DNA of 64,000 bases from a virus (IMGVR_UViG_3300001528_000259:1-64000); one strand, 5' to 3'. Counted from the first letter of the stretch, positions 5,082 through 58,621 are shown. Notes: generated by a model from the letters alone, not told the origin. A program made the numbers and translations.

Positions 5082-5127
5082 TAAAACAAAATTAAACAAT
5101 ACAAATTGATTGGAGGAGATAATTATT

Positions 5128-5526
5128 ATGACACAGAGAAACATTGACGCAATGGATATTATCGTTAGCAAGATGGCAGAGGGCGCAAAACTTTCTAAGG
5201 CGCTAAAGCTGGTATATAACAAAAGAAGTGTTAACATTCCTTATAATGATAAGAATAGCGATGTTGATTTAAGAGATTTAAAGATGACAAGTAGAACTAC
5301 GAACGCTTTACTAAGAGCTGGACTGCGAACAATTGAAGACGTTATTCAGTTCTGCTGTGAAAACGAGATTACAAAGATTAAAAACCTTGGTATTTCTTCA
5401 GGCGTAGAGACGTTCGAAACAATTCTTGATTATTGTTGGGAATACATGAACGAAGACGAGAAAACGAGGTTCTTAATTGATACTGTTGAAAGAAATAGCG
5501 AGAATATTCGCGAAGAAATTATGTAA
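5128..5526 (+). CDS. RNA polymerase alpha C-terminal-domain-like protein
   Basis: LRDLKMTSRTTNALLRAGLRTIEDV...KIKNLGISS matches the alpha-CTD signature. Confidence 0.75.
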   Translation: MTQRNIDAMDIIVSKMAEGAKLSKALKLVYNKRSVNIPYNDKNSDVDLRDLKMTSRTTNALLRAGLRTIEDVIQFCCENEITKIKNLGISSGVETFETILDYCWEYMNEDEKTRFLIDTVERNSENIREEIM

Positions 5527-5531
5527 GAACA

Positions 5532-5759
5532 ATGGCGATAATAACAAACTGCAACGCATATATCGGCGGTAAATATTCTGTTTATTGCAGAACAAAAAGC
5601 GGCAAAGGCTTTTACACCGTATGCGACACGGAACAAGAAGCCCGCAGTTTTGGGAATGAACAATGGAAAAAGCCGTATATCGTTAGCGTTCGCATAATAA
5701 AAATGAGGTTTTATAAAAAACGCAGAAATTCACTTCTTATAGCCGAAGCGAGTAAATAA
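5532..5759 (+). CDS. Hypothetical protein
   Basis: ORF in a packed run. Confidence 0.55.
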   Translation: MAIITNCNAYIGGKYSVYCRTKSGKGFYTVCDTEQEARSFGNEQWKKPYIVSVRIIKMRFYKKRRNSLLIAEASK

Positions 5760-5813
5760 AACAAACGCCGAGCGGGGGCGGCAAATCCCCCGCAGAAAGT
5801 TGAGGTATGAATC

Positions 5814-6317
5814 ATGAATACTTATGTAGAAAGTAAAAAAGCATTGGACAAAATCAGAGCAGACTTCGGTTGCAAGGGTGATGTTATCTTCCGTACTGCA
5901 ATTCAGGAAGTTATTAGTCGTGGGCAGACAACATTTTTGGATGATGGCGTTTATGAAGATATGTTGAATGATATTGACGCGAATCACGATTACGCAGAAG
6001 CAAAAGGCAAAATATTATTTGTGACAAGAGATTTTGAAAAAGCAATTGTTGAATGTGCACGAGAGCTTGCGGCAATTAATATTTATGACTTAATTATTTA
6101 TATGCAAAAAGAAGTGTATTGGTCAGACGAAGGAGGAATTGATTATGGAAGGCTCTATCAGATCGCAGGAGATGTTATGGAATGGATAGTAAGTGGTAGC
6201 TCCGATTCAGGCGAAGATTATAAGATATTTAGTGAATATTGTAATATTAATGACGACGAGCTTGAGGAACTTGGGTTTGGTTATATGGTTTCAGAGGAGG
6301 ACAAGGAAAATGACTAA
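5814..6317 (+). CDS. Hypothetical protein
   Basis: GAGGT RBS. Confidence 0.7.
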   Translation: MNTYVESKKALDKIRADFGCKGDVIFRTAIQEVISRGQTTFLDDGVYEDMLNDIDANHDYAEAKGKILFVTRDFEKAIVECARELAAINIYDLIIYMQKEVYWSDEGGIDYGRLYQIAGDVMEWIVSGSSDSGEDYKIFSEYCNINDDELEELGFGYMVSEEDKEND

Positions 6318-6528
6318 AACAGAACTTAAGAAAATTATGGATCAACATTGTATTTTAGAGTGTGAACTCGAAGATGTATTTGAATTTGTATCTGATCTTT
6401 TGTATGCATGCAGAAAAGAACTTAAGAAGAATGAACCGTATGCGACTAAAACAATTGATAGATTAGAAAATGCAGAACATGAGGTCTGGGATTTAATTGA
6501 TTATGTAAATGAATTGGAGGAAGAATAA
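6310..6528 (+). CDS. Hypothetical protein
   Basis: RBS, overlaps the upstream stop. Confidence 0.65.
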   Translation: MTKTELKKIMDQHCILECELEDVFEFVSDLLYACRKELKKNEPYATKTIDRLENAEHEVWDLIDYVNELEEE

Positions 6529-6875: not shown

Positions 6876-6892
6876 TTAATGGAGAAAAAATA

Positions 6893-7123: not shown

Positions 7124-7175
7124 CATTAACAATACAAAATGATTAAAATATGATATAATGAAGGAGAAAAGTAAA

Positions 7176-8189: not shown

Positions 8190-8192
8190 AAG

Positions 8193-11646: not shown

Positions 11647-11913
11647 ATGAATAAGAACAGACGCAAGGAACTTAGAGACTGGGTTAAGATGGCGGAAGAT
11701 TGGGTAGCAAACGGAGAGGAGATTAAGAGTACGCTTGAAAATATCTGTTCTGACGAGGAAGATTATTTCAACAACATTCCTGAGAATCTACAAAGCACCC
11801 AAAGAGCTTCTGATGCAGAAGAAGCAATCGATGCTTTGAATGAAGCAATCGATGCACTGAGTAGTGCGATTGATTCTGTGGAAGAAGCAATCAGTTGTGT
11901 TGAAGAAATTTAA
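11647..11913 (+). CDS. Acidic helical hypothetical protein
   Basis: RBS; EAIDAL repeats. Confidence 0.75.
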   Translation: MNKNRRKELRDWVKMAEDWVANGEEIKSTLENICSDEEDYFNNIPENLQSTQRASDAEEAIDALNEAIDALSSAIDSVEEAISCVEEI

Positions 11914-11948
11914 AAACGAATCGAAATGATTGAAGGAGGTAGATAAAT

Positions 11949-12203
11949 ATGGAAGAGAATGTAATGGAATTAGTGCCTGGGCTGTATGGATCAATGGTAA
12001 GTAAGAATAAGACCGTGGGGTGGTGTAGCTACCACCGCACTGCAATGACTGTAAAGACAATGAAGGGACATGGATGCCTTTGTAAACATGGAAAGCAGTG
12101 TGATGCGTTTCAGAAATGTGAAGAACATGATTTTTGGAGGCAGCACGAGCAAAAGAAAGAGCTCCGCAAAGCAAAAAAGCAATCTGTTGCGATTATTATG
12201 TAA
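11949..12203 (+). CDS. Cys/His-rich hypothetical protein
   Basis: AGGAGGT RBS. Confidence 0.7.
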   Translation: MEENVMELVPGLYGSMVSKNKTVGWCSYHRTAMTVKTMKGHGCLCKHGKQCDAFQKCEEHDFWRQHEQKKELRKAKKQSVAIIM

Positions 12204-12219
12204 TAAGGAGGGGGAGACG

Positions 12220-12573
12220 ATGATTAGAACTTGGCCTGGACAGACCAAAGAGGAATGGTTGGTAGAGTATCGTAGAGATAAAGCTTTAACAGAAGAAGAA
12301 AAAGACAGAGAGATGGATGAATATCTGAAATCTATAGATGATAAATGGAAGAAAGTCCACGAGAAGAATGAGTGTAAAATTCAACAGAAACAGAGCACAT
12401 CAGAAATATTTGCCAATTATGATCATCCGAATAGTTTAGATAACAGTGAAGCTACAGTATTGTGGATTATTGTTATGGCAATTGCCACAATTTTCAAGGG
12501 AAACTGGATTATTTGGATAATTGCTACAATTATTTGGCGCAAGTATATGACAAGACATAAAATAAAGAATTAA
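12220..12573 (+). CDS. Hypothetical membrane protein
   Basis: RBS; hydrophobic C-terminal hairpin. Confidence 0.7.
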   Translation: MIRTWPGQTKEEWLVEYRRDKALTEEEKDREMDEYLKSIDDKWKKVHEKNECKIQQKQSTSEIFANYDHPNSLDNSEATVLWIIVMAIATIFKGNWIIWIIATIIWRKYMTRHKIKN

Positions 12574-12585
12574 TAGGAGGTTATT

Positions 12586-13575
12586 ATGAATAACGTAGCT
12601 GGAAGGTTAGAGAAAGAAACCAATTTTTATGAAAAAATGAATGATAAATTAAAAGGAATGCCTAAGATTATCTCTGAATATTATACATCTATGAGAGCGA
12701 ACAGAAAGTCATATAGTACAATTGGAGTTTATGTCAATAACGTGCTGCATTTTGCTCGATTTGTGACAGGAGATAATTTGACAGAAGATTTCTATAAAAA
12801 CATTACACCGTCAGATGTTGAAAATTATATGATTTCTTTGGAGACCAGAAGTACTTCGAATGGAATTAAAAGAACTGGCGATGATATTCTGCAAAGCCGT
12901 TGGAGCTCGTTGAATACGTTTTTTGAGTGGTGTATGAAGAGAGGATATATTGGAAATAATCCAATTGCTGTTGTGAGTAGACCAAAGAATAATACGGAGC
13001 ACAAAGTAACATATTTGACAAAGGCAGAGATTAATAAGTTATTTAAGGCAGTAGATAAGAATCCAAACTATATTATTTCCATGAGGGATAAGGCGTTGTT
13101 TAGTTTAGCACTTGCAACTGGTATGAGAGCAAGTGCTTTGGTTAATATTAATAAAGAGGACATCAATTGGGAAGGAGGTTTTATTCAAGTTATTGAAAAA
13201 AGACAGAAAGTTAGAGAAATTCCGATTGGACAAAATACAATTAATATATTAAAAGAGTGGATTGATGTTCGAGACAAAGAGTTTGGATGCTTGAATACGA
13301 CTGCAATGTTTGTTTCTCAGAAGAATGGAAGATTGTCTCCCGATGCGGCGAACGATGCATTAAAGAAGTATTGTGCAGAAGCAGGGATTCAGAAGAAGAT
13401 CACACTCCATAAAATGCGTTCGAGCGCTGCGACAAATTTAGCCGCAGCAAAGGTTGACATTCAAACTATTGGAAATATTTTGGGTCATAAATCAACAGCC
13501 ACAACTTTGAAATATGTAGCCGTATTGGATGAAAACAAAAAGAATGCAATTGGTATTTTGGATAATTTGTTCTAA
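12586..13575 (+). CDS. Tyrosine recombinase (XerC/D-like)
   Basis: TGMRASAL, HKMR, LGH and TLKY catalytic residues. Confidence 0.9.
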   Translation: MNNVAGRLEKETNFYEKMNDKLKGMPKIISEYYTSMRANRKSYSTIGVYVNNVLHFARFVTGDNLTEDFYKNITPSDVENYMISLETRSTSNGIKRTGDDILQSRWSSLNTFFEWCMKRGYIGNNPIAVVSRPKNNTEHKVTYLTKAEINKLFKAVDKNPNYIISMRDKALFSLALATGMRASALVNINKEDINWEGGFIQVIEKRQKVREIPIGQNTINILKEWIDVRDKEFGCLNTTAMFVSQKNGRLSPDAANDALKKYCAEAGIQKKITLHKMRSSAATNLAAAKVDIQTIGNILGHKSTATTLKYVAVLDENKKNAIGILDNLF

Positions 13576-13582
13576 AAAATAA

Positions 13583-13612
13583 TTGCAATACATCATTTTG
13601 TAGTGTTATAAT
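13583..13612 (+). promoter_or_regulatory. Promoter of the MrpR-like gene, containing an inverted copy of the repeated element
   Basis: TTGCAA-18-TATAAT; ATCATTTTGTAGTGTT at 13592-13607. Confidence 0.65.
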
Positions 13613-13643
13613 AAAAACGATAAAAGAGTGAGGAGAGATATAT

Positions 13644-14588
13644 GTGTATACTAACGAACAGGAAGTGGAAGGCTTCTTAAAGGAGTATAAAAGGAGCAGG
13701 GTAATCATAGAAACTACGGTTAGAGCAACTTTGAATAGAGCCATAGAGTTCGAGACAAAGTTTGGCAAACCATTTTATCAATTCACAGCAGAGGAAGCAC
13801 TTGAAATGTATAAAAGCGTTCACGCAATATCCGTTGTATCCTTGCAAAACAATAATTTAGTATTAAAGCATGCGGCGCGATGGTTCGCTTTCAAGTACAA
13901 CAAGACTGCTAATAACACATATGAAGAAATCACAAAAGAAATGTTAAATGAAGCTGTGGATGTTGAGAAACAAAGAAGCCTAATTTTAAGTAGGGAAGAT
14001 GTTAGAGATGTTATAGACCAGCTATTGAATTGGACGGATAAGTGCATAATATTTTTATTGTTCAATAATGCTTGTGGTAAACTACTAAAAGAATTAACAT
14101 TTCTACAATGGAATCAAGTGAGTCGTACTGATATGAAGGTATATTTTAAGAATGGAACATCTGTGGATATAACAGAGAAGGATTATGAGATGTTAAAACA
14201 GGGGTTTGAAGAGGATGAACTTATCTCATTCGGGCAGACTAATAGGATCGCAAAAGTAAGAAGTCTTGGGTTGTATAAAGCTAGATGCAATAGTTTATCG
14301 GATAATGATAATTCAGAAGATCTTAACGATCAAAGTCGTAGGTATCGCTGGGTCCAAAGAAGGCTATTGTTAATATCATCTGATCTTGGGATTAGGTTGA
14401 CGTCTGGTGGACTTAGTGATTCTGGATTTCTATGGTATATTCAGCAAGGAATGTCGAGTACAAAAATGGACTTCAAAGATTTTATCAAAAGTAAAGAGTG
14501 CGAAAAATTAGCAAAGAAATTTGGGGTTTATTCAGATTTGTATGCTCAAATTATAAAAGATAAATTTGAAGTATATTTTGCAGAATGA
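13644..14588 (+). CDS. MrpR/YopR-like master repressor (inactive tyrosine-recombinase fold)
   Basis: MYxN...FL...FE...F N-terminus, NxxDKCIIFLLF...GKxxxEL, L...LSDSG; lacks the R-HxxR-Y set; adjacent to a Tyr recombinase as in SPbeta. Confidence 0.65.
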   Translation: MYTNEQEVEGFLKEYKRSRVIIETTVRATLNRAIEFETKFGKPFYQFTAEEALEMYKSVHAISVVSLQNNNLVLKHAARWFAFKYNKTANNTYEEITKEMLNEAVDVEKQRSLILSREDVRDVIDQLLNWTDKCIIFLLFNNACGKLLKELTFLQWNQVSRTDMKVYFKNGTSVDITEKDYEMLKQGFEEDELISFGQTNRIAKVRSLGLYKARCNSLSDNDNSEDLNDQSRRYRWVQRRLLLISSDLGIRLTSGGLSDSGFLWYIQQGMSSTKMDFKDFIKSKECEKLAKKFGVYSDLYAQIIKDKFEVYFAE

Positions 14589-14593
14589 GACGA

Positions 14594-14656
14594 TTATAAA
14601 CGAATTGTAAATTATCATGTTTTTGCGTTGGTAGTTTGGTTTGCTGGATATAAAAT
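14594..14656 (+). promoter_or_regulatory. Promoter with upstream tandem box
   Basis: TTATAAA-N4-TTGTAAA at 14594; TTGGTA-17-TAAAAT. Confidence 0.5.
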
Positions 14657-14796
14657 ATATCGAACAGAGAGAAGCGTGCTTCTCTCATTAACCAAATACG
14701 ATACAAAATGATTGAAGCTTAAATCCAATCTTGGTAAATTATACACATATAAGTAAGAACAGTTAGATTATTCATAAATTTTCCAATATTTGTGCA

Positions 14797-14825
14797 TTGC
14801 ACCAAACTGGTGTTTGGTATATAAT
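14797..14825 (+). promoter_or_regulatory. SigA promoter with palindromic spacer
   Basis: TTGCAC-17-TATAAT; ACCAAAC-TGGT-GTTTGGT. Confidence 0.55.
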
Positions 14826-14869
14826 AATAACTGGGAGATATATCTATAACGAAAGGGCTGGACAAACTA

Positions 14870-15127
14870 ATGAGAATGTTTGAGGAATGGAACAAACTAC
14901 AAAATACAAATTGTAAAGTAATAATTAATCACACAATATTCGATAATCAATCATACGATTGTGATATGCTACAGATCATAAATGACGAGCATAGAATTGG
15001 TGTCGTGATAAAAGGACAGGAGAAATTTTTGGACAAAAATAATGTTGCCGATTTTTGGACCGATGGATTTGTGTATTGTATTAAGGACGATCTTATGTCT
15101 ATTCATGTGATTGTAAATAAAATGTAA
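14870..15127 (+). CDS. Hypothetical protein
   Basis: ORF downstream of a promoter. Confidence 0.6.
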   Translation: MRMFEEWNKLQNTNCKVIINHTIFDNQSYDCDMLQIINDEHRIGVVIKGQEKFLDKNNVADFWTDGFVYCIKDDLMSIHVIVNKM

Positions 15128-15201
15128 ATTACAACGATATGATATTGACAAACCGTTCCCCCTATGCTATAATCATAACAGAATCAGAAAACAAAATGAT
15201 T
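15111..15201 (+). promoter_or_regulatory. Promoter: tandem box, TTGACA-17-TATAAT, downstream repeated element
   Basis: Box 15111, -35 15145, -10 15168, CAAAATGATT 15192. Confidence 0.8.
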
Positions 15202-15220
15202 ATAGGAAGGGGGACGGCTT

Positions 15221-15430
15221 ATGGATGAGAAACACAAAGCTCAATATCAATGTATGTGTTGTGGAGAAGTCTATTGGATAGAAGATCCACCTGATATAGA
15301 TAAAGACGAACTCTATGTGAAGATGAAATGTAAGTGTTGTGGTAAGACAGAGAATCATCTTTGGGTAGGTGAACGTGAGGAAGATAAATATTTATATTAT
15401 GATTGTACAATAGATTCACGCTATTATTAA
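15221..15430 (+). CDS. Small Zn-ribbon protein
   Basis: CMCC and CKCC motifs. Confidence 0.65.
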   Translation: MDEKHKAQYQCMCCGEVYWIEDPPDIDKDELYVKMKCKCCGKTENHLWVGEREEDKYLYYDCTIDSRYY

Positions 15431-15490
15431 TACAATACAAAATGATTGAATTAAAATTTATTTATATTAAAAGGAGTTAAAAGAGAAAAC

Positions 15491-16591
15491 ATGGCGAATC
15501 AATTTACTTTTATCGGAAAGCTCAGAAAGCTTAAGGAAAATGGTTATACAGAGCAGGAGTTCGCGGGTGGACTTCTGAAGAAGAGAGCTCAGTGCCAGAT
15601 TGTTTGTGGTGACAATGTTCAGTGGCTGGACGTGTCGGCTCTGGTCTGGAAGGATGAGAAGAAAAACAAAATCTACACTATCAAGCATGTAGAAAATGGA
15701 CAGGATGAAAAAATGGAAGTAAAGTGGCAGGATAGATTCAACGAAGATGTTGTAAATTCTGTTGCAAGTTACAAGAAATTCATCGTTGATACCGACACCT
15801 ACGCGCACAGGCAAGAGCTTGAGAAAGATGGGCAGGACGAAGAACTTGAAAAGAGTAAGAAAAAGAGAAAGACGTTTATTCACGCGGCAGATTTCGTAGA
15901 TTATCTTGTGAAGGTTCTTGATAGTGAAAAAGCAAAGGAAATGGTCTTTAAAGTAACTGGTAATATTGAGTTTTCATATTCGGAAAAAAATGGTACTTAT
16001 TATAGAACGTTTGTACCGCAGAAAGTTACTCGTGTGCCAGATACTACGACTCAAATTTGCGAAGGAACTATGAAGGTATATTTCTCGGAGAACGCTGTTG
16101 ACGATACTATGGCAGATGAAACTGGTGATATAGTGTTTAATGGATATGTTCAGAATTATTTCTCAACTATTAAAGGAAATGCGTTTGTTCCTATGTCTTT
16201 TACTGTTAACAAGGACTCTGAGATGGCTGAGGGATTTAAGTTTGTGTTTGGAGATGTCGAAGATGAGAAAGTCATGGAATATGGAGTAGTTGCCAATTTC
16301 ATCAATGGGGCCCAGCAAATCAGCATTACAGAGGATATGCTTTCAGATAAGCAGAAGAAGATGATTGCTCTCAAGATGACTACGCTGGAGAAGATCGCTG
16401 AAGAGCTTGGTGGTACCGTTAGGGGAAATAGGGTTACTAAGACGGAGCTGAAGGATACAATGAGAGGCTATTCGGGCGGAGCAGTTGAAGCTGCGTTTGA
16501 GCCGATGGATCTTCTTAAGAAACCCGTAAAGGTTGAAGAACCGAAGGAAGAGGAAGTCGCAGATATTTTCTCGGACGATGATGAAATCTGA
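15491..16591 (+). CDS. Putative single-stranded DNA-binding protein
   Basis: NQFTFIG start, acidic FSDDDEI tail, position upstream of the AAA ATPase. Confidence 0.55.
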   Translation: MANQFTFIGKLRKLKENGYTEQEFAGGLLKKRAQCQIVCGDNVQWLDVSALVWKDEKKNKIYTIKHVENGQDEKMEVKWQDRFNEDVVNSVASYKKFIVDTDTYAHRQELEKDGQDEELEKSKKKRKTFIHAADFVDYLVKVLDSEKAKEMVFKVTGNIEFSYSEKNGTYYRTFVPQKVTRVPDTTTQICEGTMKVYFSENAVDDTMADETGDIVFNGYVQNYFSTIKGNAFVPMSFTVNKDSEMAEGFKFVFGDVEDEKVMEYGVVANFINGAQQISITEDMLSDKQKKMIALKMTTLEKIAEELGGTVRGNRVTKTELKDTMRGYSGGAVEAAFEPMDLLKKPVKVEEPKEEEVADIFSDDDEI

Positions 16592-16603
16592 TGATAACAC
16601 TAT

Positions 16604-16627
16604 GTGGGTGGTGTAATAGCCACCCAC
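16604..16627 (+). terminator. GC hairpin without a U-tract (terminator or processing signal)
   Basis: GTGGGTGG-N8-CCACCCAC. Confidence 0.4.
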
Positions 16628-16697
16628 GAACGAATGATGAAAGGTAATGTAGGAGATTAAAAGAATTGTTTAGAAGAACTCTTATTATGTAAGGGTT

Positions 16698-17819
16698 ATG
16701 GAAACTAAAATTAAAGAATACATTCATTGTTGTGTGTATATCCATATTAATAAAGTCAATGGTAAAGTTTATATTGGATATACTATTCATGGTAGAAACC
16801 CAAACGAACGTTGGAAAAACGGAAATGGGTACAAAAAGAATGAACCATACTTCTGGAAAGCTATTGAAAAATATGGATGGGATAATTTTGAACATCAAAT
16901 ATTATTTAATGATTTAACATTAGAGGAAGCTCTTGAAAAAGAAAAAGAAATGATTCTATTGTATGACGCAACAAATAAAGACAGGGGTTATAATCTAAGT
17001 AGTGGCGGTAAGTCCGGGTTTGCAGGGATGCACCATACAGAAGAGTCTAAGGAAAAAATAGGAAGCTCGATGAGGGGCGAAAAGCATCCAAATTATAATA
17101 AGCCACTTCCAGAATGGCAAAAAGAAATATTGCGAAAAACTCAGACGGGTCGTACACATATCGTATCCGATAAAGCCAAAGAGAATATGAGTAAAAATCA
17201 TTCCAACAATAGAAGGGTAATTCAACTTACGTTGGATGGTATATTTATTGCAGAATACTATAATCTGAGTAGTGCGGCAAAACAAACTGGAGCACATCCA
17301 ACTGCTATTAAAGATTGTTGTATGGGACGTATACATACAGCTAATGGATTTATATGGGTATACAAAGAAGAGTACGACTCAAACAAACAATATCGAGCAA
17401 TGTATAAATTTGATGTCAATAAAATTCCTGTGGTTCAGTTGAATAAATTTGGACAATTCATTGCGGAATATTCAAGCGCTTCAAATGCAGGTAAAGCTAT
17501 TGGGTGTACGCCGAATCAAATTACGGCTTGTTGTAAACAAAAGGTATATGAAAGCGGCGGATATGTATGGATGTATAAAAGTGATTATGAATTATACGGA
17601 CCAATTATAAGAAAACAACCGAGATTAAAACAGGTCGTACAATTAAGTTTAGATGGGTGTTATATTGCAATTTTTGAAAGTACGAGAGATGCTGAAAGAC
17701 AAACTGGCACGAATCACTCCTCTATTACGAGATGCTGTAAGGATGAACAGGGTGCTGCCAATGGATTTAAGTGGATGTATTTAGAAGATTATAAAAATTT
17801 AACAGAACAAAATAATTAA
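16698..17819 (+). mobile_element. GIY-YIG homing endonuclease with NUMOD3 and repeated NUMOD1-like domains
   Basis: CVYIH...KVYIG, GYN, HTEESKEKI, three VxQL...SA...I..CC repeats. Confidence 0.85.
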
Positions 17820-17851
17820 AAATATTTAAGAATACAAGGAGAATAACTGAT

Positions 17852-19033: not shown

Positions 19034-19051
19034 TACAAACTAATAACCCAC

Positions 19052-19087
19052 AGGCGGTGCGGAGCAATCTGCCATCGCCTATTTTTG
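19052..19087 (+). terminator. Intrinsic terminator
   Basis: AGGCGGTG...CATCGCCT followed by ATTTTTG. Confidence 0.65.
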
Positions 19088-19158
19088 TAAACAATTTGTT
19101 AAGTCTATTGACAAAACAAAAAAGTAGATGTATAATGCAAATACAAAACAAAATGATT
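19085..19158 (+). promoter_or_regulatory. Promoter: box, TTGACA-17-TATAAT, repeated element
   Basis: -35 19108, -10 19131, element 19149. Confidence 0.8.
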
Positions 19159-19181
19159 GGAGAAAAGAAGGTAGTAAAGAT

Positions 19182-19620: not shown

Positions 19621-19632
19621 AAGGAGACTTCC

Positions 19633-24102: not shown

Positions 24103-24122
24103 AAGTTTGGTGACAATACAAA

Positions 24123-24374
24123 ATGATTAATTATAAAATTTGTCCTATTTGCAAGTACAAGCAAGGTTACTGTCAGTGCTTATTTGGAGGAAGTGCGCAT
24201 CCAGATAGGAGTAAAAGACTGGATGTGGTTCTGGAGCATTTATATCTACTAACGCCGGAGCAGGTTCAACATGTTATTGAGTTAGAAAAGCATTGGCAGA
24301 TTTCATATGACGATGAAGAAAAGAATAAAATTGTAAGAGAATTGGAGACATTAAACGATGATTACAAATCTTAA
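24123..24374 (+). CDS. Hypothetical protein
   Basis: ATG lies within the repeated element. Confidence 0.6.
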   Translation: MINYKICPICKYKQGYCQCLFGGSAHPDRSKRLDVVLEHLYLLTPEQVQHVIELEKHWQISYDDEEKNKIVRELETLNDDYKS

Positions 24375-29175: not shown

Positions 29176-29259
29176 TTGTAAATAAACTGTAAACTATATT
29201 ACAACCCACTTGACAAAAGTCAAATTTTAAATATAATAAAAGTACAGTACAAAATGATT
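29176..29259 (+). promoter_or_regulatory. Promoter: tandem box, TTGACA-16-TATAAT, repeated element
   Basis: Box 29176, -35 29210, -10 29232, element 29250. Confidence 0.75.
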
Positions 29260-29303
29260 GTATTGTAAAAAAATAATAACAAAAAAACAAAAGGAGAAAA
29301 GCT

Positions 29304-32704: not shown

Positions 32705-32783
32705 ATTAATTGTAAACTCCATCATAAGTATCTTGACAAACTAAAGTCTTCGCACTATAATTATGGTACAATACAAAATGATT
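32699..32783 (+). promoter_or_regulatory. Promoter: tandem box, TTGACA-17-TATAAT, repeated element
   Basis: Box 32699, -35 32733, -10 32756, element 32774. Confidence 0.8.
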
Positions 32784-32798
32784 AAGGAGAAAAAAGAA

Positions 32799-33428: not shown

Positions 33429-34330
33429 TGATGAAAGATACACAAGGAAAACTCACTTATGACGAATTTATCAATAGCATTCTTAAAACTCGCGGACGTT
33501 TTGCTTGTGGCGAGGAATACCACGAAAGACATCATATTAAGCCTAAGTGTATTGGTGGCTTAGACGAAGAAGATAACTTGATTGATCTGTTTGCAAGGGA
33601 ACATTTTGAAGCGCATCGATTGTTAGCGTTGGAGAATCCAGATAACACGAAATTAGTGTATGCCTGGTATGTTATTACACATTGTAAAAACCAATATCAA
33701 GAAAGATATATGGCCAGTGCAGAAGAATATGACGAAGCAAAGGAAGCGTGGAGCAAACAATACAGCGAATCAATACGTGGTGAAAAACATTGGGATTGTT
33801 CTGGTGCAAATAATCCTAATTATGGGAAGCCAAGATCCGAAGAAACTAAGAAAAAAATTAGTCGGGCTAACACTGGCAAACCAAGCGCAATGAAAGGAAA
33901 ACATCATTCAGAAAATACACGCAAAAATATTAGTATAAAAGCCAAAGAAAGATTAAAAAACAAAGAAAATCATCCGTGGTTTGGTAGAAATCATTCAGAA
34001 GAATCAAAAAAACTACTAAGTGAATTACAAAAAGAAAGATTAAAAAATCCAGAAAACCATCCGATGTATGGCAAACATCTTGCGGAGGAAACAAGGAATA
34101 AATTGCGTGAAAAAGCTAAAGAACGATATAAAGATCCTGCAAATCATCCAAACGCTCGTCGTGTTGTTCGTTTGTCTGATTTGAAAATTTATGGTTATTT
34201 AATGCAAGCGGCACAAGATAATAATATTAGTAGATATACCATGAGAAGATACTGCAAACAACATAAAGATTTTATGTATTATGATGAGTATTTGATTCAA
34301 CAAAATGATTTAAAGGAGGGTGATCAATGA
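33428..34330 (+). mobile_element. HNH homing endonuclease with NUMOD3 repeats
   Basis: ERHHIKPKCIGG...EHFEAHRLL; HSEE..K repeats; paralog of 28328..29173. Confidence 0.85.
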
Positions 34331-41597: not shown

Positions 41598-42509
41598 ATG
41601 AACGTTTTAAGTTTATGTGATGGTATTTCATGTGGGCAAATCGCGCTTAGAGAACTTGGTGTTAAAGTTAACAAATATTATGCAAGCGAGATTGATAGGA
41701 TTGCTATTAAGATTACTCAGGATAATTTTCCAGATACAATGCAACTTGGAGATGTTATTGCGCTGTCTGATGATGAAGAATGTCTCCGGCGATTGCCTAA
41801 GATTGATTTAGTTTGTTTTGGTTTTCCGTGCAGAAGTCTTTCTAACGCTACTGCAGGAAGAAGCGAGTATAACAATGGGCTTAGGGGCGTAAGTGGAATT
41901 TTCTATTATTGTTTAAAGATATTAAACTGGATTCGGACCAATAATAACTCAAATGTATTCTTTTTGACAGAAAACGTAAACTCAAATCAAAAGGTTGATG
42001 TTGATATTATATCTAATTTACTTAGTGTAAATCCAATACTGATTAACAGCAATTTATTTTCTGCTCAGGACAGAGAAAGATTATATTGGACCAATATTCC
42101 AGTTGGTGTATTACCAGAATCGTGCGACTTGGTACTTAATGATATTCTAGACGAAGAAGTGGACGATAAGTATTTTTATCATCAATCATTTGATTTTTAC
42201 GGAGAAGATAACAAAGTTTGTGCGACGCTTCACATCAATGGGCATGATATTTTGAAGCGGGTCAATAGCAAGTATTTCAAGTGTCCAACCGTAACGGCAT
42301 GTAGAGGTGGTAATCATCAAAAAAAAGTTTATGATAGCGGTCGTTGCAGAAAACTTACGCCAAACGAATATCGTAAATTACAGACTATCCCAGAATGGTA
42401 TGTTATGAATGTTGCTGACAGTCACATATATAATACATGTGGAGATGGATGGACTGTTAAGGTAATTGAATTTATTTTTAGTGAATTAAAGACACAACAA
42501 AATGATTAA
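41598..42509 (+). CDS. DNA cytosine-5 methyltransferase
   Basis: LSLCDGI, GFPC, ENV, QDRER, GDGW motifs. Confidence 0.9.
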   Translation: MNVLSLCDGISCGQIALRELGVKVNKYYASEIDRIAIKITQDNFPDTMQLGDVIALSDDEECLRRLPKIDLVCFGFPCRSLSNATAGRSEYNNGLRGVSGIFYYCLKILNWIRTNNNSNVFFLTENVNSNQKVDVDIISNLLSVNPILINSNLFSAQDRERLYWTNIPVGVLPESCDLVLNDILDEEVDDKYFYHQSFDFYGEDNKVCATLHINGHDILKRVNSKYFKCPTVTACRGGNHQKKVYDSGRCRKLTPNEYRKLQTIPEWYVMNVADSHIYNTCGDGWTVKVIEFIFSELKTQQND

Positions 42510-43424: not shown

Positions 43425-43505
43425 TTGTAAATAAATTGTAAACAAGCTCCGAAGTGCCTTGACAAACCAGCGTTTCGGAGCTATTATATACACGACAAAA
43501 TGATT
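43425..43505 (+). promoter_or_regulatory. Promoter: tandem box, TTGACA-17-TATTAT, repeated element
   Basis: Box 43425, -35 43459, -10 43482, element 43496. Confidence 0.75.
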
Positions 43506-43520
43506 ATATAAGGAGTAAGC

Positions 43521-44297
43521 ATGCTTGAATTGAACAAAATTTATAATTGCGATTGTCTCGATGGATTTAAAATGCTTGATGATAATAGCATTGATTTAAC
43601 CGTTACAAGTCCACCATATGACAATTTGAGAAAATATAAAGGATACAATTGGGACTTTGAAATAACCGCTAAAGAATTATATAGAGTAACTAAACATGGT
43701 GGAGTTGTTGTTTGGATTGTCGGAGATGCGACTATTAATGGTAGCGAAACGGGAACTTCATTTAAGGAAGCATTGTATTTTAAAAAATGTGGTTTCAATT
43801 TGCATGATACAATGATTTATCATAAAATCAATCCTATTCCTCAGAAATCTAATAGATATCAGCCGAGCTTTGAATATATGTTTGTTTTTTCTAAAGGAAA
43901 ACCGATAACGTTTCATCCAATTATGATAGAAAAGAAGTATATGGAAAATAGGAAGAGCAAACAATACAACAAGAAAAAAGATGGAGAACAAATTGTCAGA
44001 GAGTACAAAGCAATATCTACTATGAAAGTTATTGATAATGTGTGGGAATATTCTGTTGGGCTTAATAATAGCACATCTGATAAAATTGCTTTTTCACATC
44101 CAGCAATATTTCCAGAAAAATTAGCAGAAGATCATATAATTTCGTGGAGCAATCCTGGGGATGTTGTGCTTGATCCTTTTATAGGAAGTGGTACAACGGC
44201 AAAAATGGCATTATTGAATAACAGAAATTTTATTGGTTTCGAGGTATCAAAAGAGTATTGCGATATAGCAAACGAAAGAATTAACAATGCAAAATGA
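43521..44297 (+). CDS. Beta-class N4-C/N6-A DNA methyltransferase
   Basis: TSPPY precedes DPFIGSGTT. Confidence 0.9.
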   Translation: MLELNKIYNCDCLDGFKMLDDNSIDLTVTSPPYDNLRKYKGYNWDFEITAKELYRVTKHGGVVVWIVGDATINGSETGTSFKEALYFKKCGFNLHDTMIYHKINPIPQKSNRYQPSFEYMFVFSKGKPITFHPIMIEKKYMENRKSKQYNKKKDGEQIVREYKAISTMKVIDNVWEYSVGLNNSTSDKIAFSHPAIFPEKLAEDHIISWSNPGDVVLDPFIGSGTTAKMALLNNRNFIGFEVSKEYCDIANERINNAK

Positions 44298-44311
44298 TTG
44301 GAGAGAACGAT

Positions 44312-44536: not shown

Positions 44537-44693
44537 ACTTGGTGAAAAATTGGTGTGCACCGTGTGCGGAAAAGAATTTACAGTAACGGAAGATACTAAA
44601 TACATTGCAAAAGGTGGCTATGTGTGTAATTGGAAGTGCTTCTTAGCGAGAGTTAAAGAGGTTGAGTTGGAGAAGAATAATAAGACAAAGTGA
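44517..44693 (+). CDS. Small Zn-finger protein (not in the ORF track)
   Basis: CTVCGKEF...CNWKC, 58 aa. Confidence 0.6.
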   Translation: MMISDVKLGEKLVCTVCGKEFTVTEDTKYIAKGGYVCNWKCFLARVKEVELEKNNKTK

Positions 44694-44707
44694 TTGGAGG
44701 AGATATA

Positions 44708-49752: not shown

Positions 49753-49781
49753 TTGACAAATCAAAATGATTGATGTATAAT
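49753..49781 (+). promoter_or_regulatory. SigA promoter with the repeated element inside its spacer
   Basis: TTGACA-aatCAAAATGATTgatg-TATAAT. Confidence 0.75.
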
Positions 49782-50408: not shown

Positions 50409-50492
50409 TTGTAAACAAGTTGTAAACGCTAACAAAAAGTACTTGACAAAGAAAATTTATATGATATAATAATGTTACAATACAGAATGATT
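50409..50492 (+). promoter_or_regulatory. tRNA operon promoter: tandem box, TTGACA-16-TATAAT, element variant
   Basis: Box 50409, -35 50443, -10 50465, CAGAATGATT 50483. Confidence 0.75.
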
Positions 50493-50559
50493 GAAGTGTG
50501 ATGACATCTGACTGTGGAAAGACACTGGCGACTCGGAAATAGACGAGCAATAAATATAT

Positions 50560-50648
50560 GCCGCTGTGGTGGAATTGGCAGACACCTGGGACTTAAAATC
50601 CCATGTTCAGAGATGAGCGTACCGGTTCGATCCCGGTCAGCGGCACCA
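50560..50648 (+). tRNA. tRNA-Leu(TAA)
   Basis: Cloverleaf with long variable arm and encoded CCA. Confidence 0.9.
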
Positions 50649-50702
50649 TCTGTGGAAATCAAGCGTGTCCACCATCGGGCGCCCCGTAAAAGCCGGATAT
50701 AC

Positions 50703-50792
50703 GGAGAGTTAAGCATAGTTGGTACTGCGGCGGATTGCCAATTCGTTCCTCGTTCATTCGAGGCAGAGGTTCGACCCCTTTCACCTATGCCA
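50703..50792 (+). tRNA. Atypical or pseudo tRNA: Tyr-like class II body, GCC anticodon, mispaired acceptor stem
   Basis: GCGGA-TTGCCAA-TTCGT arm, CCTCG/CGAGG variable arm, TTCGA loop, CCA end. Confidence 0.55.
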
Positions 50793-50799
50793 AATGCCC

Positions 50800-51110
50800 A
50801 GTTGAGATAACATACTACGGCTGTGAGTGACGGTCGGGATCCAAGGTGCAGATAAGTTCTGTGGGCGTAAAAGAAATAAGAGGTTAGATTGCATTACACA
50901 ATCGAAGTTAGCCTTGAAACAGGCAGGACATAGCCTCAAATAAATCCTTGGTGAGCTAAGATGGGAAACACTAATCCCCCTACTATTATAAAAGCTGAAA
51001 AGACCACGATAAACCATACGAAAGGTTTGTCCTCGTAGATGGAATTGTGATTGAATAGCAATCTTGCGTAAAGGCAAAGGGTGAGGCTGATAGTGGAGTC
51101 ACTTATGTAA
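50800..51110 (+). ncRNA. Candidate large structured ncRNA
   Basis: Long-range helices and several hairpins between tRNAs; no credible ORF. Confidence 0.55.
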
Positions 51111-51117
51111 TATTTAT

Positions 51118-51193
51118 GCGGATGTAGCTCAGTTGGTAGAGCACACGATTTTTAATCGTGGAGTCTGGAGTTCAAACCTCCACATCCGCACCA
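51118..51193 (+). tRNA. tRNA-Lys(TTT)
   Basis: Canonical cloverleaf, CCA. Confidence 0.92.
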
Positions 51194-51200
51194 TCTATAT

Positions 51201-51276
51201 TGCCTGTTAGCCAAGAGGTAAGGCACCAGACTTTGACTCTGGTATTACGGTAGTTCGAATCTACCACAGGCAGCCA
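51201..51276 (+). tRNA. tRNA-Gln(TTG)
   Basis: Canonical cloverleaf, CCA. Confidence 0.92.
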
Positions 51277-51277
51277 T

Positions 51278-51439
51278 TGCACAGGAAATATGTATAGCTT
51301 CGTGACAAACTTATACGAGAATACGCCGTTCAGAGTATAGCTCCTCTGCTGAAACGAGAAAGAATTAGTCCCGCTGAAGGTAGTATATAGCAAAGCGCGA
51401 ATGTGGGTGTTATACATCACCCGGTTTTCTGTGCATCCA
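51278..51439 (+). ncRNA. Candidate 162-nt ncRNA with an acceptor-like stem ending in NCCA
   Basis: TGCACAGGAAA/TTTTCTGTGCA followed by TCCA. Confidence 0.5.
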
Positions 51440-51444
51440 AATAT

Positions 51445-51521
51445 GCGCACGTAGCCCAGAGGCAGGAGGCAGATGACTCAAAATCATCACAGGGAATGTT
51501 CGAATCATTTCGTGCGTACCA
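51445..51521 (+). tRNA. tRNA-Leu(CAA) with short variable loop
   Basis: GATGA-CTCAAAA-TCATC arm, TTCGAAT loop, ACCA end. Confidence 0.8.
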
Positions 51522-51980: not shown

Positions 51981-52034
51981 TTGACACATAACACACTTCT
52001 TGATATAATAAGTTTGTAACAATACAAAATGATT
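51981..52034 (+). promoter_or_regulatory. SigA promoter plus repeated element
   Basis: TTGACA 51981, 17 nt spacer, TATAAT 52004; element 52025. Confidence 0.8.
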
Positions 52035-52051
52035 AAGGAGTGTGTTTTTCA

Positions 52052-52846: not shown

Positions 52847-52929
52847 TTGTAAACAAATTGTAAATACCCCCATAAGTGCATTGACAATTAAGTAGTTATG
52901 CTATATAATGTATACACAACAAAATGATT
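52847..52929 (+). promoter_or_regulatory. Promoter: tandem box, TTGACA-17-TATAAT, repeated element
   Basis: Box 52847, -35 52881, -10 52904, element 52920. Confidence 0.8.
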
Positions 52930-52943
52930 AAGGGGGTCTTCAA

Positions 52944-53381
52944 ATGGAAAATCGTTGTATGTACTGTGGGGAAGTAATACCAGAAGGAAGGCAAATTTGC
53001 CCATCTTGTGAGAAGTCTATCATCAAGAAAAGTATGATCCTACAAAGTTATCAAACAACAAATAAAAAAATATTAGAAAAAAAGGAAATACGTATGGAAG
53101 AAAAAACAACGTCAGAAGCAATCTCTGAAATTAAAGGCGCTACCGAAGAAGAGTTACGAAAAGTAATTGAAAAGTGGTTTGAGAGTGTTAGAAATTCAGG
53201 GATGAAGATTGGGGCAAGCTACATAGCCGCAGCAGTTTATGGGATAATCGAAAAGGATCTTAAGAAAGAGCCAAAACCCAGTCTTAGAGATTATCAAAGA
53301 ACAATTAAGAAAATTATTAAAATCGTGTCTGTGCAGTTAAAGCAAGAAGAAACACAACAAAATGATTTATTCGAGGCGTGA
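52944..53381 (+). CDS. Hypothetical protein with N-terminal Zn ribbon
   Basis: CMYCG..IPEGRQICPSC. Confidence 0.7.
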   Translation: MENRCMYCGEVIPEGRQICPSCEKSIIKKSMILQSYQTTNKKILEKKEIRMEEKTTSEAISEIKGATEEELRKVIEKWFESVRNSGMKIGASYIAAAVYGIIEKDLKKEPKPSLRDYQRTIKKIIKIVSVQLKQEETQQNDLFEA

Positions 53382-55885: not shown

Positions 55886-56076
55886 TTTTATATTCAACAC
55901 ACTGTCCTCGTTGTAAAGTTTTAACTAAAAAACTACAGGATGCCGGTGTTCAATATGAAGAAATTAATGACATTGAAATTATGAAAGCAAGGGGTTTTAA
56001 TGAAGCACCAAAACTTGAAATAGACGGTGTTGTTTATGGATTTAAAGAAGCTGTAAATTGGATTAAGGAGCAGTAA
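55870..56076 (+). CDS. Glutaredoxin/NrdH-like redoxin
   Basis: YSTHCPRC, AP.L.IDG. Confidence 0.8.
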   Translation: MGERVILYSTHCPRCKVLTKKLQDAGVQYEEINDIEIMKARGFNEAPKLEIDGVVYGFKEAVNWIKEQ

Positions 56077-56080
56077 TAGC

Positions 56081-57904
56081 ATGGGGAAATATAGTAGTTA
56101 CGAAAAGTATGTTAATTTTATTAACAAATACAAGAAGGCAATCAATGCCTCAAGCGGAAGCGAAGTTGATGCTAATGCAAATGTTGAAAACAAAAATATT
56201 GCCACGCTGCAAGGAGAACTTAGCAAAAGAGACATTATAGGAACAAATAGATTATTGATGGTTAATAAACTTACAGAGATGTATGGCATTGATATGGCAG
56301 ATGAGTATATCAGACAACTTGATTCTCATGAGATTTATAAGCATGATGAAACTAGCGTTATGCCGTATTGCGTTTCCATCACAATGTATCCATTCTTATT
56401 TGAAGGTTTGAAGTCTATTGGTGGATTGTCAGAGCCTCCGCAAAACCTCGATTCTTTTTGTGGAGCATTTATTAATCTCGTTTTTGCTATTGCATCTCAA
56501 TTCGCAGGGGCAGTATCGACTCCCGAATTTTTAACATATTTAGACTATTTTATCAGAAGAGAATACGGCGACGATTATTATTTAAATTCCGATAAGACAG
56601 TTACAACAGGGAATAGACCAAAAACAATAGATAAAGTTATCACAGATAAGTTTAGCCAAGTTGTTTATTCATTGAACCAGCCTGCGGCGGCAAGAAACTT
56701 CCAAAGCGTGTTTTGGAATATAGCTTATTTTGATAAGAATTATTTTGATGGCATTTTTCATGACTTTATTTTTCCTGATGACACAGAACCAACTTGGGAC
56801 AGTGTAAAATGGTTACAAAAAAGATTCATGAAGTGGTTCAACGCAGAAAGACTCAAGAAGCCTCTCACATTTCCGGTTGAAACGGTAAATCTACTTGATA
56901 ATGGAATTGATTATGTGGATAAAGAGTGGTTTGATTTTGTAGCAGAGATGTATGCAGAAGGACATTCATTCTTCACGTATAGAAGTAATAGTGTAGATTC
57001 GTTGGCTTCATGCTGTAGACTTCGTAATGGTATACAAAATAATACATTCTCTTTTACTCTTGGAGCGGGAGGCGTATCAACGGGATCTAAGGGTGTTATA
57101 ACAATTAATATTAATAGACTTGTTCAAAATGCAACAAAAGAAGGAAAGGATATTTCCAACGCTGTCTCAGAGCAGGTCAAAAAAGTACATTGCTACTTGA
57201 AGGCATTTAATGAAATTATGAGAGATAACTTCAATGCAAAGCTTCTTCCTGTGTACGATGCGGGTTATATCTCATTAGATAAGCAATATCTTACACTTGG
57301 AATCAATGGATTTGTTGAAGGAGCTGAGTTTCTTGGTATTCAAATTTCTCCCAACGAAGAATATTTTAAGTATGGCGAAAAAATCCTAAAGCCTATCTAT
57401 GAGTTAAATAAAGCAGAAAGAACAGATGAATTAATGTTTAACACAGAATTCGTACCTGCGGAGAATTTAGGTGTCAAAAACGCAAAGTGGGACAAAGAAG
57501 ATGGATACTTTGTACCACGTGAATGCTATAATAGTTATTTCTATATTGTAGAGGACGATAGCACCAACACTGTGGATAAGTTTATTCTTCATGGCGACAA
57601 ACTTACAAAGTATCTGGATGGAGGAAGTGCACTTCACGCAAATCTAAACGAGCATCTAACAAAAGAACAATATAAGGTATTAATGCTCGACGCCATTAAA
57701 ACGGGATGCTCGTATTTCACGTTTAATATTCCAAACACGATTTGTAATGATTGCGGACATATTAGCAAGCATAGAATGGATCACTGCGAGGCTTGTGGGA
57801 GCAAAAATATCGATTATCTTACACGTGTTATTGGGTATCTTAAGAGAGTGTCTGCATTCTCAGAAGCTCGCCAGAAAGAAGCAGCAAAAAGATATTATGA
57901 ATAA
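56081..57904 (+). CDS. nrdD: Anaerobic ribonucleoside-triphosphate reductase, no ATP cone
   Basis: PYC, ASCCRL, VPAE, TRVIGYL glycyl-radical loop. Confidence 0.95.
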   Translation: MGKYSSYEKYVNFINKYKKAINASSGSEVDANANVENKNIATLQGELSKRDIIGTNRLLMVNKLTEMYGIDMADEYIRQLDSHEIYKHDETSVMPYCVSITMYPFLFEGLKSIGGLSEPPQNLDSFCGAFINLVFAIASQFAGAVSTPEFLTYLDYFIRREYGDDYYLNSDKTVTTGNRPKTIDKVITDKFSQVVYSLNQPAAARNFQSVFWNIAYFDKNYFDGIFHDFIFPDDTEPTWDSVKWLQKRFMKWFNAERLKKPLTFPVETVNLLDNGIDYVDKEWFDFVAEMYAEGHSFFTYRSNSVDSLASCCRLRNGIQNNTFSFTLGAGGVSTGSKGVITININRLVQNATKEGKDISNAVSEQVKKVHCYLKAFNEIMRDNFNAKLLPVYDAGYISLDKQYLTLGINGFVEGAEFLGIQISPNEEYFKYGEKILKPIYELNKAERTDELMFNTEFVPAENLGVKNAKWDKEDGYFVPRECYNSYFYIVEDDSTNTVDKFILHGDKLTKYLDGGSALHANLNEHLTKEQYKVLMLDAIKTGCSYFTFNIPNTICNDCGHISKHRMDHCEACGSKNIDYLTRVIGYLKRVSAFSEARQKEAAKRYYE

Positions 57905-58379
57905 TAAACTGAAATATCTTGGATATAGTATTGTGTTTCAAGAAGTTCCGAACGAAGTAACACTTGCAATTAACATTAGTGGTTGCCCTCACCGTTGTGA
58001 GGGTTGCCACAGTAAGTATTTATGGGAATATAATGGCAATTATATATCTGATGATTTAGTAGGGCTCATCGAAAAATACAAGGAACTCATTACTTGTGTG
58101 TGTTTCATGGGTGGAGATCAAAACTTGAATGAATTGTATAAATTAATGAAAATTGTACAATTATCAAATTTAAAAGTGGCACTATATACTGGAGCCTCAG
58201 ATCCACATACTATCGGATACGCGATGTCTTTACCTGTAGATTATCTTAAATATGGTCCATATATTAAAGAATATGGTGCTCTTAATAGCAAAACAACCAA
58301 TCAGATAATGCTACAAAGGAATGGCGATAAGTGGGATAATATAACTTATAAATTTCAGAAAGGATGTCTTAATGATTAA
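57897..58379 (+). CDS. nrdG: Anaerobic RNR activating protein (radical SAM)
   Basis: GCPHRCEGCH. Confidence 0.9.
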   Translation: MNNKLKYLGYSIVFQEVPNEVTLAINISGCPHRCEGCHSKYLWEYNGNYISDDLVGLIEKYKELITCVCFMGGDQNLNELYKLMKIVQLSNLKVALYTGASDPHTIGYAMSLPVDYLKYGPYIKEYGALNSKTTNQIMLQRNGDKWDNITYKFQKGCLND

Positions 58380-58587
58380 AATTAAACAAACAGAAGACAA
58401 AGAACTTCTTGAAGAAATTCTAAGACAACTTAAAGAACACAACGGGCACTGCCCATGTCAGTTCGATGATGAATTACAAGATACATTATGTATTTGTGCT
58501 TCATTTAAGAAAGAAATTGACAAAACAAATTCAGGCATAATTGAATGTCCATGTGGCAGATATATTGCAACTATTACACAAGATTAA
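58372..58587 (+). CDS. Ferredoxin:thioredoxin reductase catalytic-subunit-like protein
   Basis: GHCPC...CIC...CPCGRY. Confidence 0.7.
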   Translation: MIKIKQTEDKELLEEILRQLKEHNGHCPCQFDDELQDTLCICASFKKEIDKTNSGIIECPCGRYIATITQD

Positions 58588-58621
58588 AACAATACAAAAT
58601 GATTAAAAGGAGAACAAAATT

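Follow-up and report, generated by a model that had tools for sequence, protein, structure and literature searches.

The 64,000-nucleotide (nt) stretch analyzed here (IMGVR_UViG_3300001528_000259:1-64000, hereafter the window) spans the initial 64 kb of one 138,724-bp virus record and forms the left arm of a phage. It carries a dispersed asymmetric word, ACAAWACAAAATGATT(R), which is most probably the DNA box of the phage's own repressor, a protein of the MrpR/SroF type encoded at 13644-14588, so that the copies would form an operator array of the type called SPBRE in phage SPbeta. We favor this reading because the word is enriched and polar, lies at 12 of 13 perfect promoters, occurs together with a gene for a homologous repressor, and is kept in relatives. 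By analogy with characterized phages, the 13644-14588 protein would bind these boxes and repress from them; that some boxes might act as roadblocks to transcription is the most conjectural part. The original prediction, made from the sequence of the window, was of an SPBRE- or stoperator-like operator array, and it finds support in the protein family, the orientation, frequency and promoter cover of the sites, an inverted pair of boxes, and the likeness of the word to SPBRE.

Genes lie on the + strand up to ~62.4 kb and on the - strand from ~62.6 to 137 kb, and the GC skew flips at the same point; gene calls were from our own crude caller, which gave 181 genes and 91% coding sequence over the whole 138,724-bp genome. 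In the window, the core of the word, CAAAATGATT, occurs in 21 exact copies, all on the + strand, against 1.04 expected (standard deviation 1.02, largest 4), and none of 100 dinucleotide shuffles of the window reached 21. These are the 21 copies located by the original prediction, and the seven one-mismatch copies that it had counted by eye (5102, 11579, 11922, 17808, 34705, 44686, and 50483) were likewise recovered. Exact copies in the genome as a whole total 34: the + strand has 21, spread from 7.1 to 58.6 kb, and the - strand has 13, from 65.5 to 136.3 kb. None of the 34 runs against transcription in either arm. Word orientation tracks transcription in both arms: the switch in the minus-strand arm, on which the prediction had been staked beforehand, was found in all 13 copies there. 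The statement that every copy in the window is on the + strand holds for exact copies but not for one-mismatch cores, 12 of which are on the - strand. Eleven of these 12 fall below the 11-bit threshold of the matrix described below, and the remaining one, at 13591, is a real, conserved reversed site. Six further one-mismatch cores were found on the + strand of the window (17881, 37061, 46354, 48069, 59950, and 61909).

The 34 exact copies bear the predicted prefix ACA-NN-A (A in 32, C in 28, A in 25 and, directly before the core, A in 27 of the 34), which gives the full word ACAAWACAAAATGATT followed by A or G. The whole genome was scanned with an 18-nt weight matrix at thresholds of 16 bits (strong) and 11 bits (lenient). 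Strong sites numbered 45, of which 44 are co-oriented with transcription, whereas first-order Markov simulation yielded a mean of 0.77 and at most 3. The frequency of the word is therefore not due to base composition, whether judged from exact cores in shuffled sequence or from strong sites in simulated sequence. At the lenient threshold, 58 sites were found (56 co-oriented and 2 reversed), and since 11.6 are expected over both strands, the low-scoring sites inside genes are probably chance. Nineteen of the 21 exact cores in the window score at least 16 bits; the core at 34301 scores 14.0 bits and that at 49311 less than 11 bits.

The sites at 11 bits or more are largely outside genes: 33 are wholly intergenic and 8 partly so, and 7 of the 17 within genes are at the extreme 3′ end of the gene. 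The genome contains 13 perfect TTGACA-16/17-TATAAT promoters, all co-directed with genes, where ~0.3 would be expected (hand estimate from base composition). The word is present at 12 of these 13, starting 1-12 nt past the -10 box in eleven and filling the spacer in one (49753); placement of the copy at 49762 within the spacer of TTGACA-17-TATAAT, and of many copies shortly after a -10 box, is thus as originally described. Among the 44 co-oriented strong sites, 13 lie past a -10, 10 overlap a promoter under loose criteria, and 21 have no promoter, meaning that none was found allowing up to three mismatches. Five or six of the 10 loose overlaps are convincing (7128, 11572, 24112, 49755, 79507, and perhaps 44679).

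Junction sites with no recognizable promoter number about 21-26. The distance to the next start codon was measured for 19 promoter-less sites; in 12 of them, 11-21 nt separate the end of the word from that codon, and the word lies right against the Shine-Dalgarno sequence. At promoter sites, the distance from box to start codon is not fixed (44, 88, and 154 nt), and because it is free where room exists, the tight fit at junctions may reflect short intergenic spaces. Several sites encode the last codons and the stop codon of the upstream gene, giving the terminal sequences EFTQQND, LKTQQND, NLTQQND, FITHQND, and NLTEQNN. The QQND tails noticed earlier on unrelated proteins are genuine for the RecJ-like protein (EFTQQND) and the C5 methylase (LKTQQND), but not for a third, "HNH" case: by hand translation, this NUMOD3 endonuclease-like protein ends in DLKEGDQ, with QQND eight residues before the stop. 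The boxes of the window are as follows.

5095..5112, + strand: junction box, no promoter found; 20.9 bits; next start codon 16 nt downstream
7128..7145, + strand: extended -10 promoter (TGATATAAT) with the box over its -35/spacer; 25.0 bits; same layout in relatives L004, L006, L015, and L018
7907..7924, + strand: junction box; 22.5 bits
11572..11615, + strand: variant box with core CAAAGTGATT, its 3′ end forming the -35 of the operon promoter TTGACA-17-TACAAT
11915..11932, + strand: junction box inside the repressor operon; 17.5 bits; also in relatives L004 and L006
13590..13607, - strand: the sole strong box against transcription, in the spacer of the mrpR-like promoter; 19.3 bits
14697..14714, + strand: box past a hairpin 3′ of the repressor gene; 23.0 bits
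15185..15202, + strand: box 12 nt past the -10 of perfect promoter 15145
15431..15448, + strand: box ahead of gene 15491-16591; 25.2 bits
17801..17818, + strand: box over the 3′ end of a GIY-YIG endonuclease gene (tail TEQNN, then stop)
19142..19159, + strand: box 6 nt past the -10 of perfect promoter 19108
24112..24129, + strand: box overlapping the weaker promoter GTGACA-18-TAAAAT
29243..29260, + strand: box 6 nt past the -10 of perfect promoter 29210
32767..32784, + strand: box 6 nt past the -10 of perfect promoter 32733
34294..34311, + strand: exact core in the 3′ end of the NUMOD3 gene, beside the Shine-Dalgarno sequence of the next gene; 14.0 bits
34698..34715, + strand: junction box; 22.1 bits
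41567..41584, + strand: box supplying the final codons and stop codon of the RecJ-like gene (EFTQQND)
42491..42508, + strand: box supplying the final codons and stop codon of the C5 methylase gene (LKTQQND)
43489..43506, + strand: box 2 nt past the -10 of TTGACA-17-TATTAT
44283..44300, + strand: junction box after the N6/N4 methylase gene
44679..44696, + strand: weaker box ahead of the Pol III alpha gene; 16.4 bits
48895..48912, + strand: box 1 nt past the -10 of perfect promoter 48866
49755..49772, + strand: box filling the spacer of perfect promoter 49753
50476..50493, + strand: box 6 nt past the -10 of perfect promoter 50443, ahead of four tRNA genes
52018..52035, + strand: box 9 nt past the -10 of perfect promoter 51981, ahead of an endolysin-like gene
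52913..52930, + strand: box 4 nt past the -10 of perfect promoter 52881
53351..53368, + strand: box within the 3′ end of gene 52944-53381; 22.0 bits
58588..58605, + strand: junction box; 25.0 bits

The candidate reader of these boxes is encoded by the last gene of an operon that lies behind the promoter at 11587 (genes 11647-14588):

11647..13575, + strand: upstream genes of the operon, three small open reading frames (88, 84, and 117 aa) and a tyrosine recombinase
12586-13575, + strand: the tyrosine recombinase (Pfam Phage_integrase, 4.1e-38)
13583..13612, + strand: own promoter of the repressor gene, TTGCAA-18-TATAAT with TG, with the reversed box in its spacer
13644-14588, + strand: gene of the MrpR/YopR/SroF family, 314 aa, GTG start

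As a single sequence, the 13644-14588 protein matched PDB entries 8bj6/8a0a by phmmer with an E-value of 2.7e-7 over its N-terminal half only, and scored 23.7 bits against Pfam MrpR_N_CB, under the cut-off of 27. The protein has 601 homologues, or 441 representatives at 50% clustering, and a profile of 60 family sequences (A2) matched YopR/MrpR in the PDB with an E-value of 1.8e-37 over profile positions 1-294, as well as PDB entry 9rd5, which is labeled merely as a CB-domain protein (E 2e-40). Alignment to YopR/MrpR by hhalign gave a probability of 99.7% (E 1.1e-25, 262 columns). On these profiles, the earlier assignment of the protein to the MrpR family is borne out, and its homology to MrpR/YopR/SroF over the CB and CAT domains is settled. 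As to a putative loss of the catalytic residues of recombinases, PF00589 did not match it at E ≤ 0.001; the adjoining recombinase gene matches at 4.1e-38. Identity to YopR is ~21%, at which level the alignment of Q302 with YopR Y304 is unsure and the K169 column stands beside a gap.

The operon and its surroundings are kept among relatives. The block 11647-15430 was matched gene by gene in 4-7 of 7 relatives, and 5 of its 7 genes in all 7. At the operon promoter, ~2 kb upstream of mrpR, the layout GATTGACA, in which the 3′ end of the box is the -35, is found here (11587) and in L004, L006, L012, L018, and L020; the copy at 11579 had been placed over a -35, and its 3′ end indeed supplies the TTG of TTGACA-17-TACAAT. 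A box ~965 nt past the mrpR start is kept in all seven relatives with listed sites, and each of these seven also has one reversed site at the same place. By-eye alignment of 11 relatives' loci showed a common arrangement in the mrpR-like promoter, P(mrpR), consisting of a forward box, 10-12 nt between the CAAAATG cores, a reversed box, and TATAAT. The 3′ end of the forward box makes the -35 of this promoter, and the forward partner of the pair is degenerate in the present phage. The face-to-face pair (window 13560-13612; ~40-85 nt before the mrpR start in L004-L020) resembles a tyrosine-recombinase core site.

Relatives were collected from IMG/VR with alignments of homologues (A1 and A4), which found 17 and then 29 loci where single-protein scans of IMG/VR with the window's protein, P0126, and P0136 had returned no relatives. 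In 14 of the first 17 loci, whose repressors are 46-71% identical, the same 10-mer was top or tied on the gene strand, with 0-1 copies on the other strand. Four near-complete relatives (163-175 kb) carry 43, 47, 22, and 29 exact cores in strand blocks, against 0-3 for the reversed-word control. The word itself has changed by one or two bases in three lineages. In G005/L020, ACAAAATAATT occurs 25 times and the standard core just 3 times, whereas G001 and G002 contain a single ACAAAATAATT each; L025-L032 have 5-8 copies of CAAAGTGATT per locus, and L047 has 8 copies of ACAAAATGAA. In L010/G003, which has 22 exact cores in 175 kb, many one-letter variants occur (e.g., ACAGAATGATT and ACAAAGTGATT), and its box set looks more relaxed. 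In a quick tree of 27 repressor sequences (20 of them different), the variants are on separate branches, and the four word types need 4 changes against a minimum of 3, one of the 4 being a labeling artefact of the short locus L009.

Residues of the repressor were compared with these word types. At the column of YopR Y304, 9 of 10 standard-word sequences carry Q (the exception, L042, has V), as does the CAAAGTGATT lineage, while A or S is found in the two lineages with an altered 3′ half of the word; what sets the CAAAGTGATT lineage apart is instead its CB helix and its ERRYRW helix. The link to Q302 relies on the alignment with YopR Y304 and on similar residue numbers, alignments to phi3T stopping before the last helix.

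Taken as an SPBRE-type array, the sites suggest the following mechanism. The repressor, with a predicted dead tyrosine-recombinase fold, would clamp as a monomer around a single asymmetric box. At 13 strong host-type promoters, a box 1-12 nt past the -10 would cover the transcription start and block initiation; at about five promoters, the box would act from over the -35 or the spacer; and the facing pair in P(mrpR) would serve autoregulation. At the 21-26 or so promoter-less junctions, bound monomers may be polar roadblocks that silence read-through, like the stoperators of cluster A mycobacteriophages, or the junction boxes might instead store repressor or help silencing to spread.

Several points weigh against this proposal. 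Roughly half of the strong sites lack a promoter and lie directly against the Shine-Dalgarno sequence of the following gene, a position that would suit an RNA-level signal equally well. The integrase-like fold of the 13644-14588 protein is predicted from sequence profiles, its monomeric DNA-clamping state is assumed from homology, and the conserved word is 16-18 bp, as opposed to the 24-26 bp read by SroF of phi3T. Variants that sort by repressor clade are expected for any phage-encoded factor, as relatives share everything, and the suggestive residue-word pattern at Q302, with three variant lineages and one exception (L042), is a lead rather than a result. In addition, the repressor has N142 (codons 141-143, window 14064-14072) where all seven aligned relatives have G. 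This column corresponds to YopR residue 136, which is E in SPBc2, and the published account attributes the heat-inducibility of SPbeta c2 to G136E (PMC10516654); the N142 repressor may accordingly be weakened or temperature-sensitive.

The same sites could form a DNA operator array read by another phage protein, such as a small protein of the operon or the 66-aa helix-turn-helix (HTH) protein described below, which we consider unlikely. The word co-varies with the whole phage lineage and not provably with one gene, and the sole perfect promoter lacking a box drives that small HTH protein. Small HTH proteins, however, are usually dimers on symmetric sites, whereas the word is asymmetric and, at 16-18 bp, as expected for a monomer of the MrpR fold; moreover, it is precisely the promoter of the MrpR-like gene that holds the inverted pair in 11 relatives' loci, and the 5′ half of the word resembles SPBRE.

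The word might act in RNA, as a shared 5′ leader or pre-Shine-Dalgarno element for a phage RNA-binding protein or nuclease that adjusts translation or mRNA processing much as T4 RegA/RegB do, a reading to which the strict co-orientation with transcription and the position of the word against the Shine-Dalgarno sequence at promoter-less junctions (a gap of 11-21 nt to the start codon in 12 of 19), even within upstream last codons, would lend themselves. It is nevertheless quite unlikely. Five or six boxes in spacers or over a -35 are upstream of the transcription start, and at three promoters with the box 1-2 nt past the -10 the transcript would lose its 5′ part. The conserved reversed copy in P(mrpR) would be senseless in RNA, the distance to the start codon varies where room exists (44, 88, and 154 nt), and no Rfam family matched at the sites. 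The homologous SPBRE, as described in the published account, is bound as DNA (PMC10516654).

It is very unlikely that the word is the promoter of the phage's YonO-like RNA polymerase (Pfam RdRP, 8.8e-16), even though such a polymerase is encoded and promoters of phage polymerases are asymmetric, dispersed, co-oriented words just before genes. In SPbeta, the YonO polymerase transcribes the entire late operon from a single start (PMC5467207), and that region of SPbeta has no full SPBRE. Here, the word is equally frequent in the early (replication) and late arms and sits, with offsets that vary, atop 12 of the 13 perfect host-type promoters, which fits a blocker and not a second promoter.

That the junction copies are "boundary" sequences or recombinase half-sites for cassette exchange between related phages is highly improbable: relatives are strongly mosaic with respect to one another upstream of the repressor operon, a true tyrosine recombinase is encoded next door, and the P(mrpR) pair has the look of a recombinase core site, but gene-by-gene tblastn against 7 relatives was too sparse to tie breakpoints to boxes, lone half-sites are not substrates of known tyrosine recombinases, and promoter association accounts for close to half of the sites. 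A polar signal of the Chi or KOPS kind was ruled out because such words need not avoid coding sequence, yet 33 of the 58 sites are wholly intergenic in a 91%-coding genome.

Elsewhere in the genome, the gene content identified by protein-family searches is SPbeta-like. Apart from the RecJ-like, C5-methylase, N6/N4-methylase, and Pol III alpha genes, the window encodes NrdD, and the following features were found in the window or the rest of the genome.

60328-62352 (window): large serine recombinase
128355-131189 (genome), - strand: YonO-like two-barrel RNA polymerase, Pfam RdRP 8.8e-16
16698-17819 and 33428-34330 (window), 64249-65460 and 131219-131887 (genome): homing-endonuclease-like genes

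The homing-endonuclease-like genes are of the GIY-YIG+NUMOD1/3, NUMOD3, DUF4379+NUMOD1, and HNH_3 types, and some have a box at their own end or a box-guarded promoter ahead. Four tRNA genes (Rfam, 48-72 bits) lie in window 50560-51518 behind the box-guarded perfect promoter 50443; the Rfam scan returned these four tRNAs only, and no family at the boxes. In the minus-strand arm, three boxes occur within 240 nt (genome 79271-79507, - strand) in the gap between genes for 1,542-aa and 303-aa proteins, one of them in the spacer of TTGGCA-17-TATAAT. The single perfect sigma-A promoter of the 13 that has no box (genome 137327-137617, - strand) drives a 66-aa protein with HTH domains (Pfam HTH_23 1.8e-9, HTH_7 9.7e-7), a candidate for a repressor-independent regulator where the two arms diverge.

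No GAAC-N4-GTTC (LexA-type) box occurs in the 138.7-kb genome and there is one intergenic one-mismatch match, which is a weak test; if an SOS-controlled antirepressor is used for induction as in phi3T, the signal or the host LexA box would differ. The 366-aa gene after the repressor had no PDB sequence match that would make it an arbitrium receptor AimR, again a weak test, and Sar itself was not searched for. Among GenBank phages, no close relative was found by megablast of 12000-20000 or tblastn of the repressor, and no prophage copy was confirmed among 185,579 species genomes.

MrpR and SroF were characterized in 2023-2025, in SPbeta and phi3T alone, with about ten promoter boxes known. The present phage and its relatives would carry the same switch in a much denser form, with promoter-less junction sites and strict polarity. 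The repressor-box system and the stoperator idea are each already known, and this is not a new kind of system. In the literature, no stoperator-like role and no dense, junction-located, strictly polar array was found for MrpR/SroF boxes, although supplements may list more SPbeta or phi3T sites; the SroF preprint (bioRxiv 10.1101/2025.11.27.690993) nowhere uses the words roadblock, elongation, or intergenic. Should elongation be stopped at the junction sites, stoperators would have arisen twice, on unrelated folds. It is possible, though less likely than not, that in an uncultured 140-175-kb SPbeta-like clade an integrase-fold repressor has become a true stoperator protein, monomers on ~25 promoter-less junctions stopping RNA polymerase one way as a second, independent invention of the mycobacteriophage solution with an unrelated fold; that the facing pair is the fossil of an ancestral recombination core site; and that one-base changes of the box together with changes of the Q302 helix define immunity groups. 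The natural one-base box variants and diverged repressors are ready pairs for the study of DNA reading and of the origins of immunity groups.

According to its published description, MrpR of SPbeta is a monomer with a tyrosine-recombinase fold that showed no recombination in vitro; ChAP-seq (chromatin affinity purification sequencing) gave ten peaks, all on SPBRE-bearing promoters, SPBRE DNA was shifted in electrophoretic mobility assays, and PaimR and PyosX are repressed (PMC10516654). SroF of phi3T is described as binding a 26-bp asymmetric box as a monomer wrapped almost fully around the DNA, and as reading the bases via a CB helix, helix 13, and helix 18 (bioRxiv 10.1101/2025.11.27.690993). 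From the ten named ChAP-seq promoters of SPbeta (NC_001884), we rebuilt SPBRE as approximately ACAAATACAAAWAATATGTATA. SPbeta has 11 full SPBRE, all 11 co-oriented with the following gene and, by eye, located in the spacer, beside the -35, or just past the -10. Both words are thus asymmetric, dispersed over their own genome, and co-oriented, with copies at the -35, within the spacer, or past the -10. SPBRE and the word of the present phage have the 5′ half ACAA(A)TACAAA in common, whereas their 3′ halves differ. The repressors are homologous, with CB and CAT domains by profile, and in both systems the repressor gene comes last in an operon that includes a YopP-like, true tyrosine recombinase. 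In contrast to the 11 sites of SPbeta, all promoter-associated, there are ~45 strong sites here, about half of them at promoter-less junctions and some in gene ends. The inverted pair in the repressor's own promoter is a feature of the present phage, and its operon has five genes instead of six, with no YopQ-like gene between recombinase and repressor.

Core sites of the loxP or dif type consist of two inverted binding arms around a short central region. The P(mrpR) element likewise has two inverted arms around a short center, but its arm spacing varies by 2 nt among relatives, and the repressor has Q at the position of YopR Tyr-304 (alignment uncertain).

In cluster A mycobacteriophages, the repressor (L5 gp71 or that of TipsytheTRex) is described as monomeric and its sites as asymmetric, numbering more than 20 per genome, located in promoters and short intergenic spaces, and oriented with transcription; these stoperators stop elongation, and reversing a site abolishes the effect (PMC9283540). 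Many asymmetric, transcription-oriented sites in promoters and short intergenic spaces are therefore common to both systems. The folds are unrelated, an HTH and a "stoperator" domain there and a recombinase fold here, and the candidate repressor is not of the gp71 type; the word is 13 bp there and 16-18 bp here, and the host phylum differs. The orientation-dependent stop of elongation is demonstrated in the mycobacteriophages and is what we infer for the junction boxes of the present phage.

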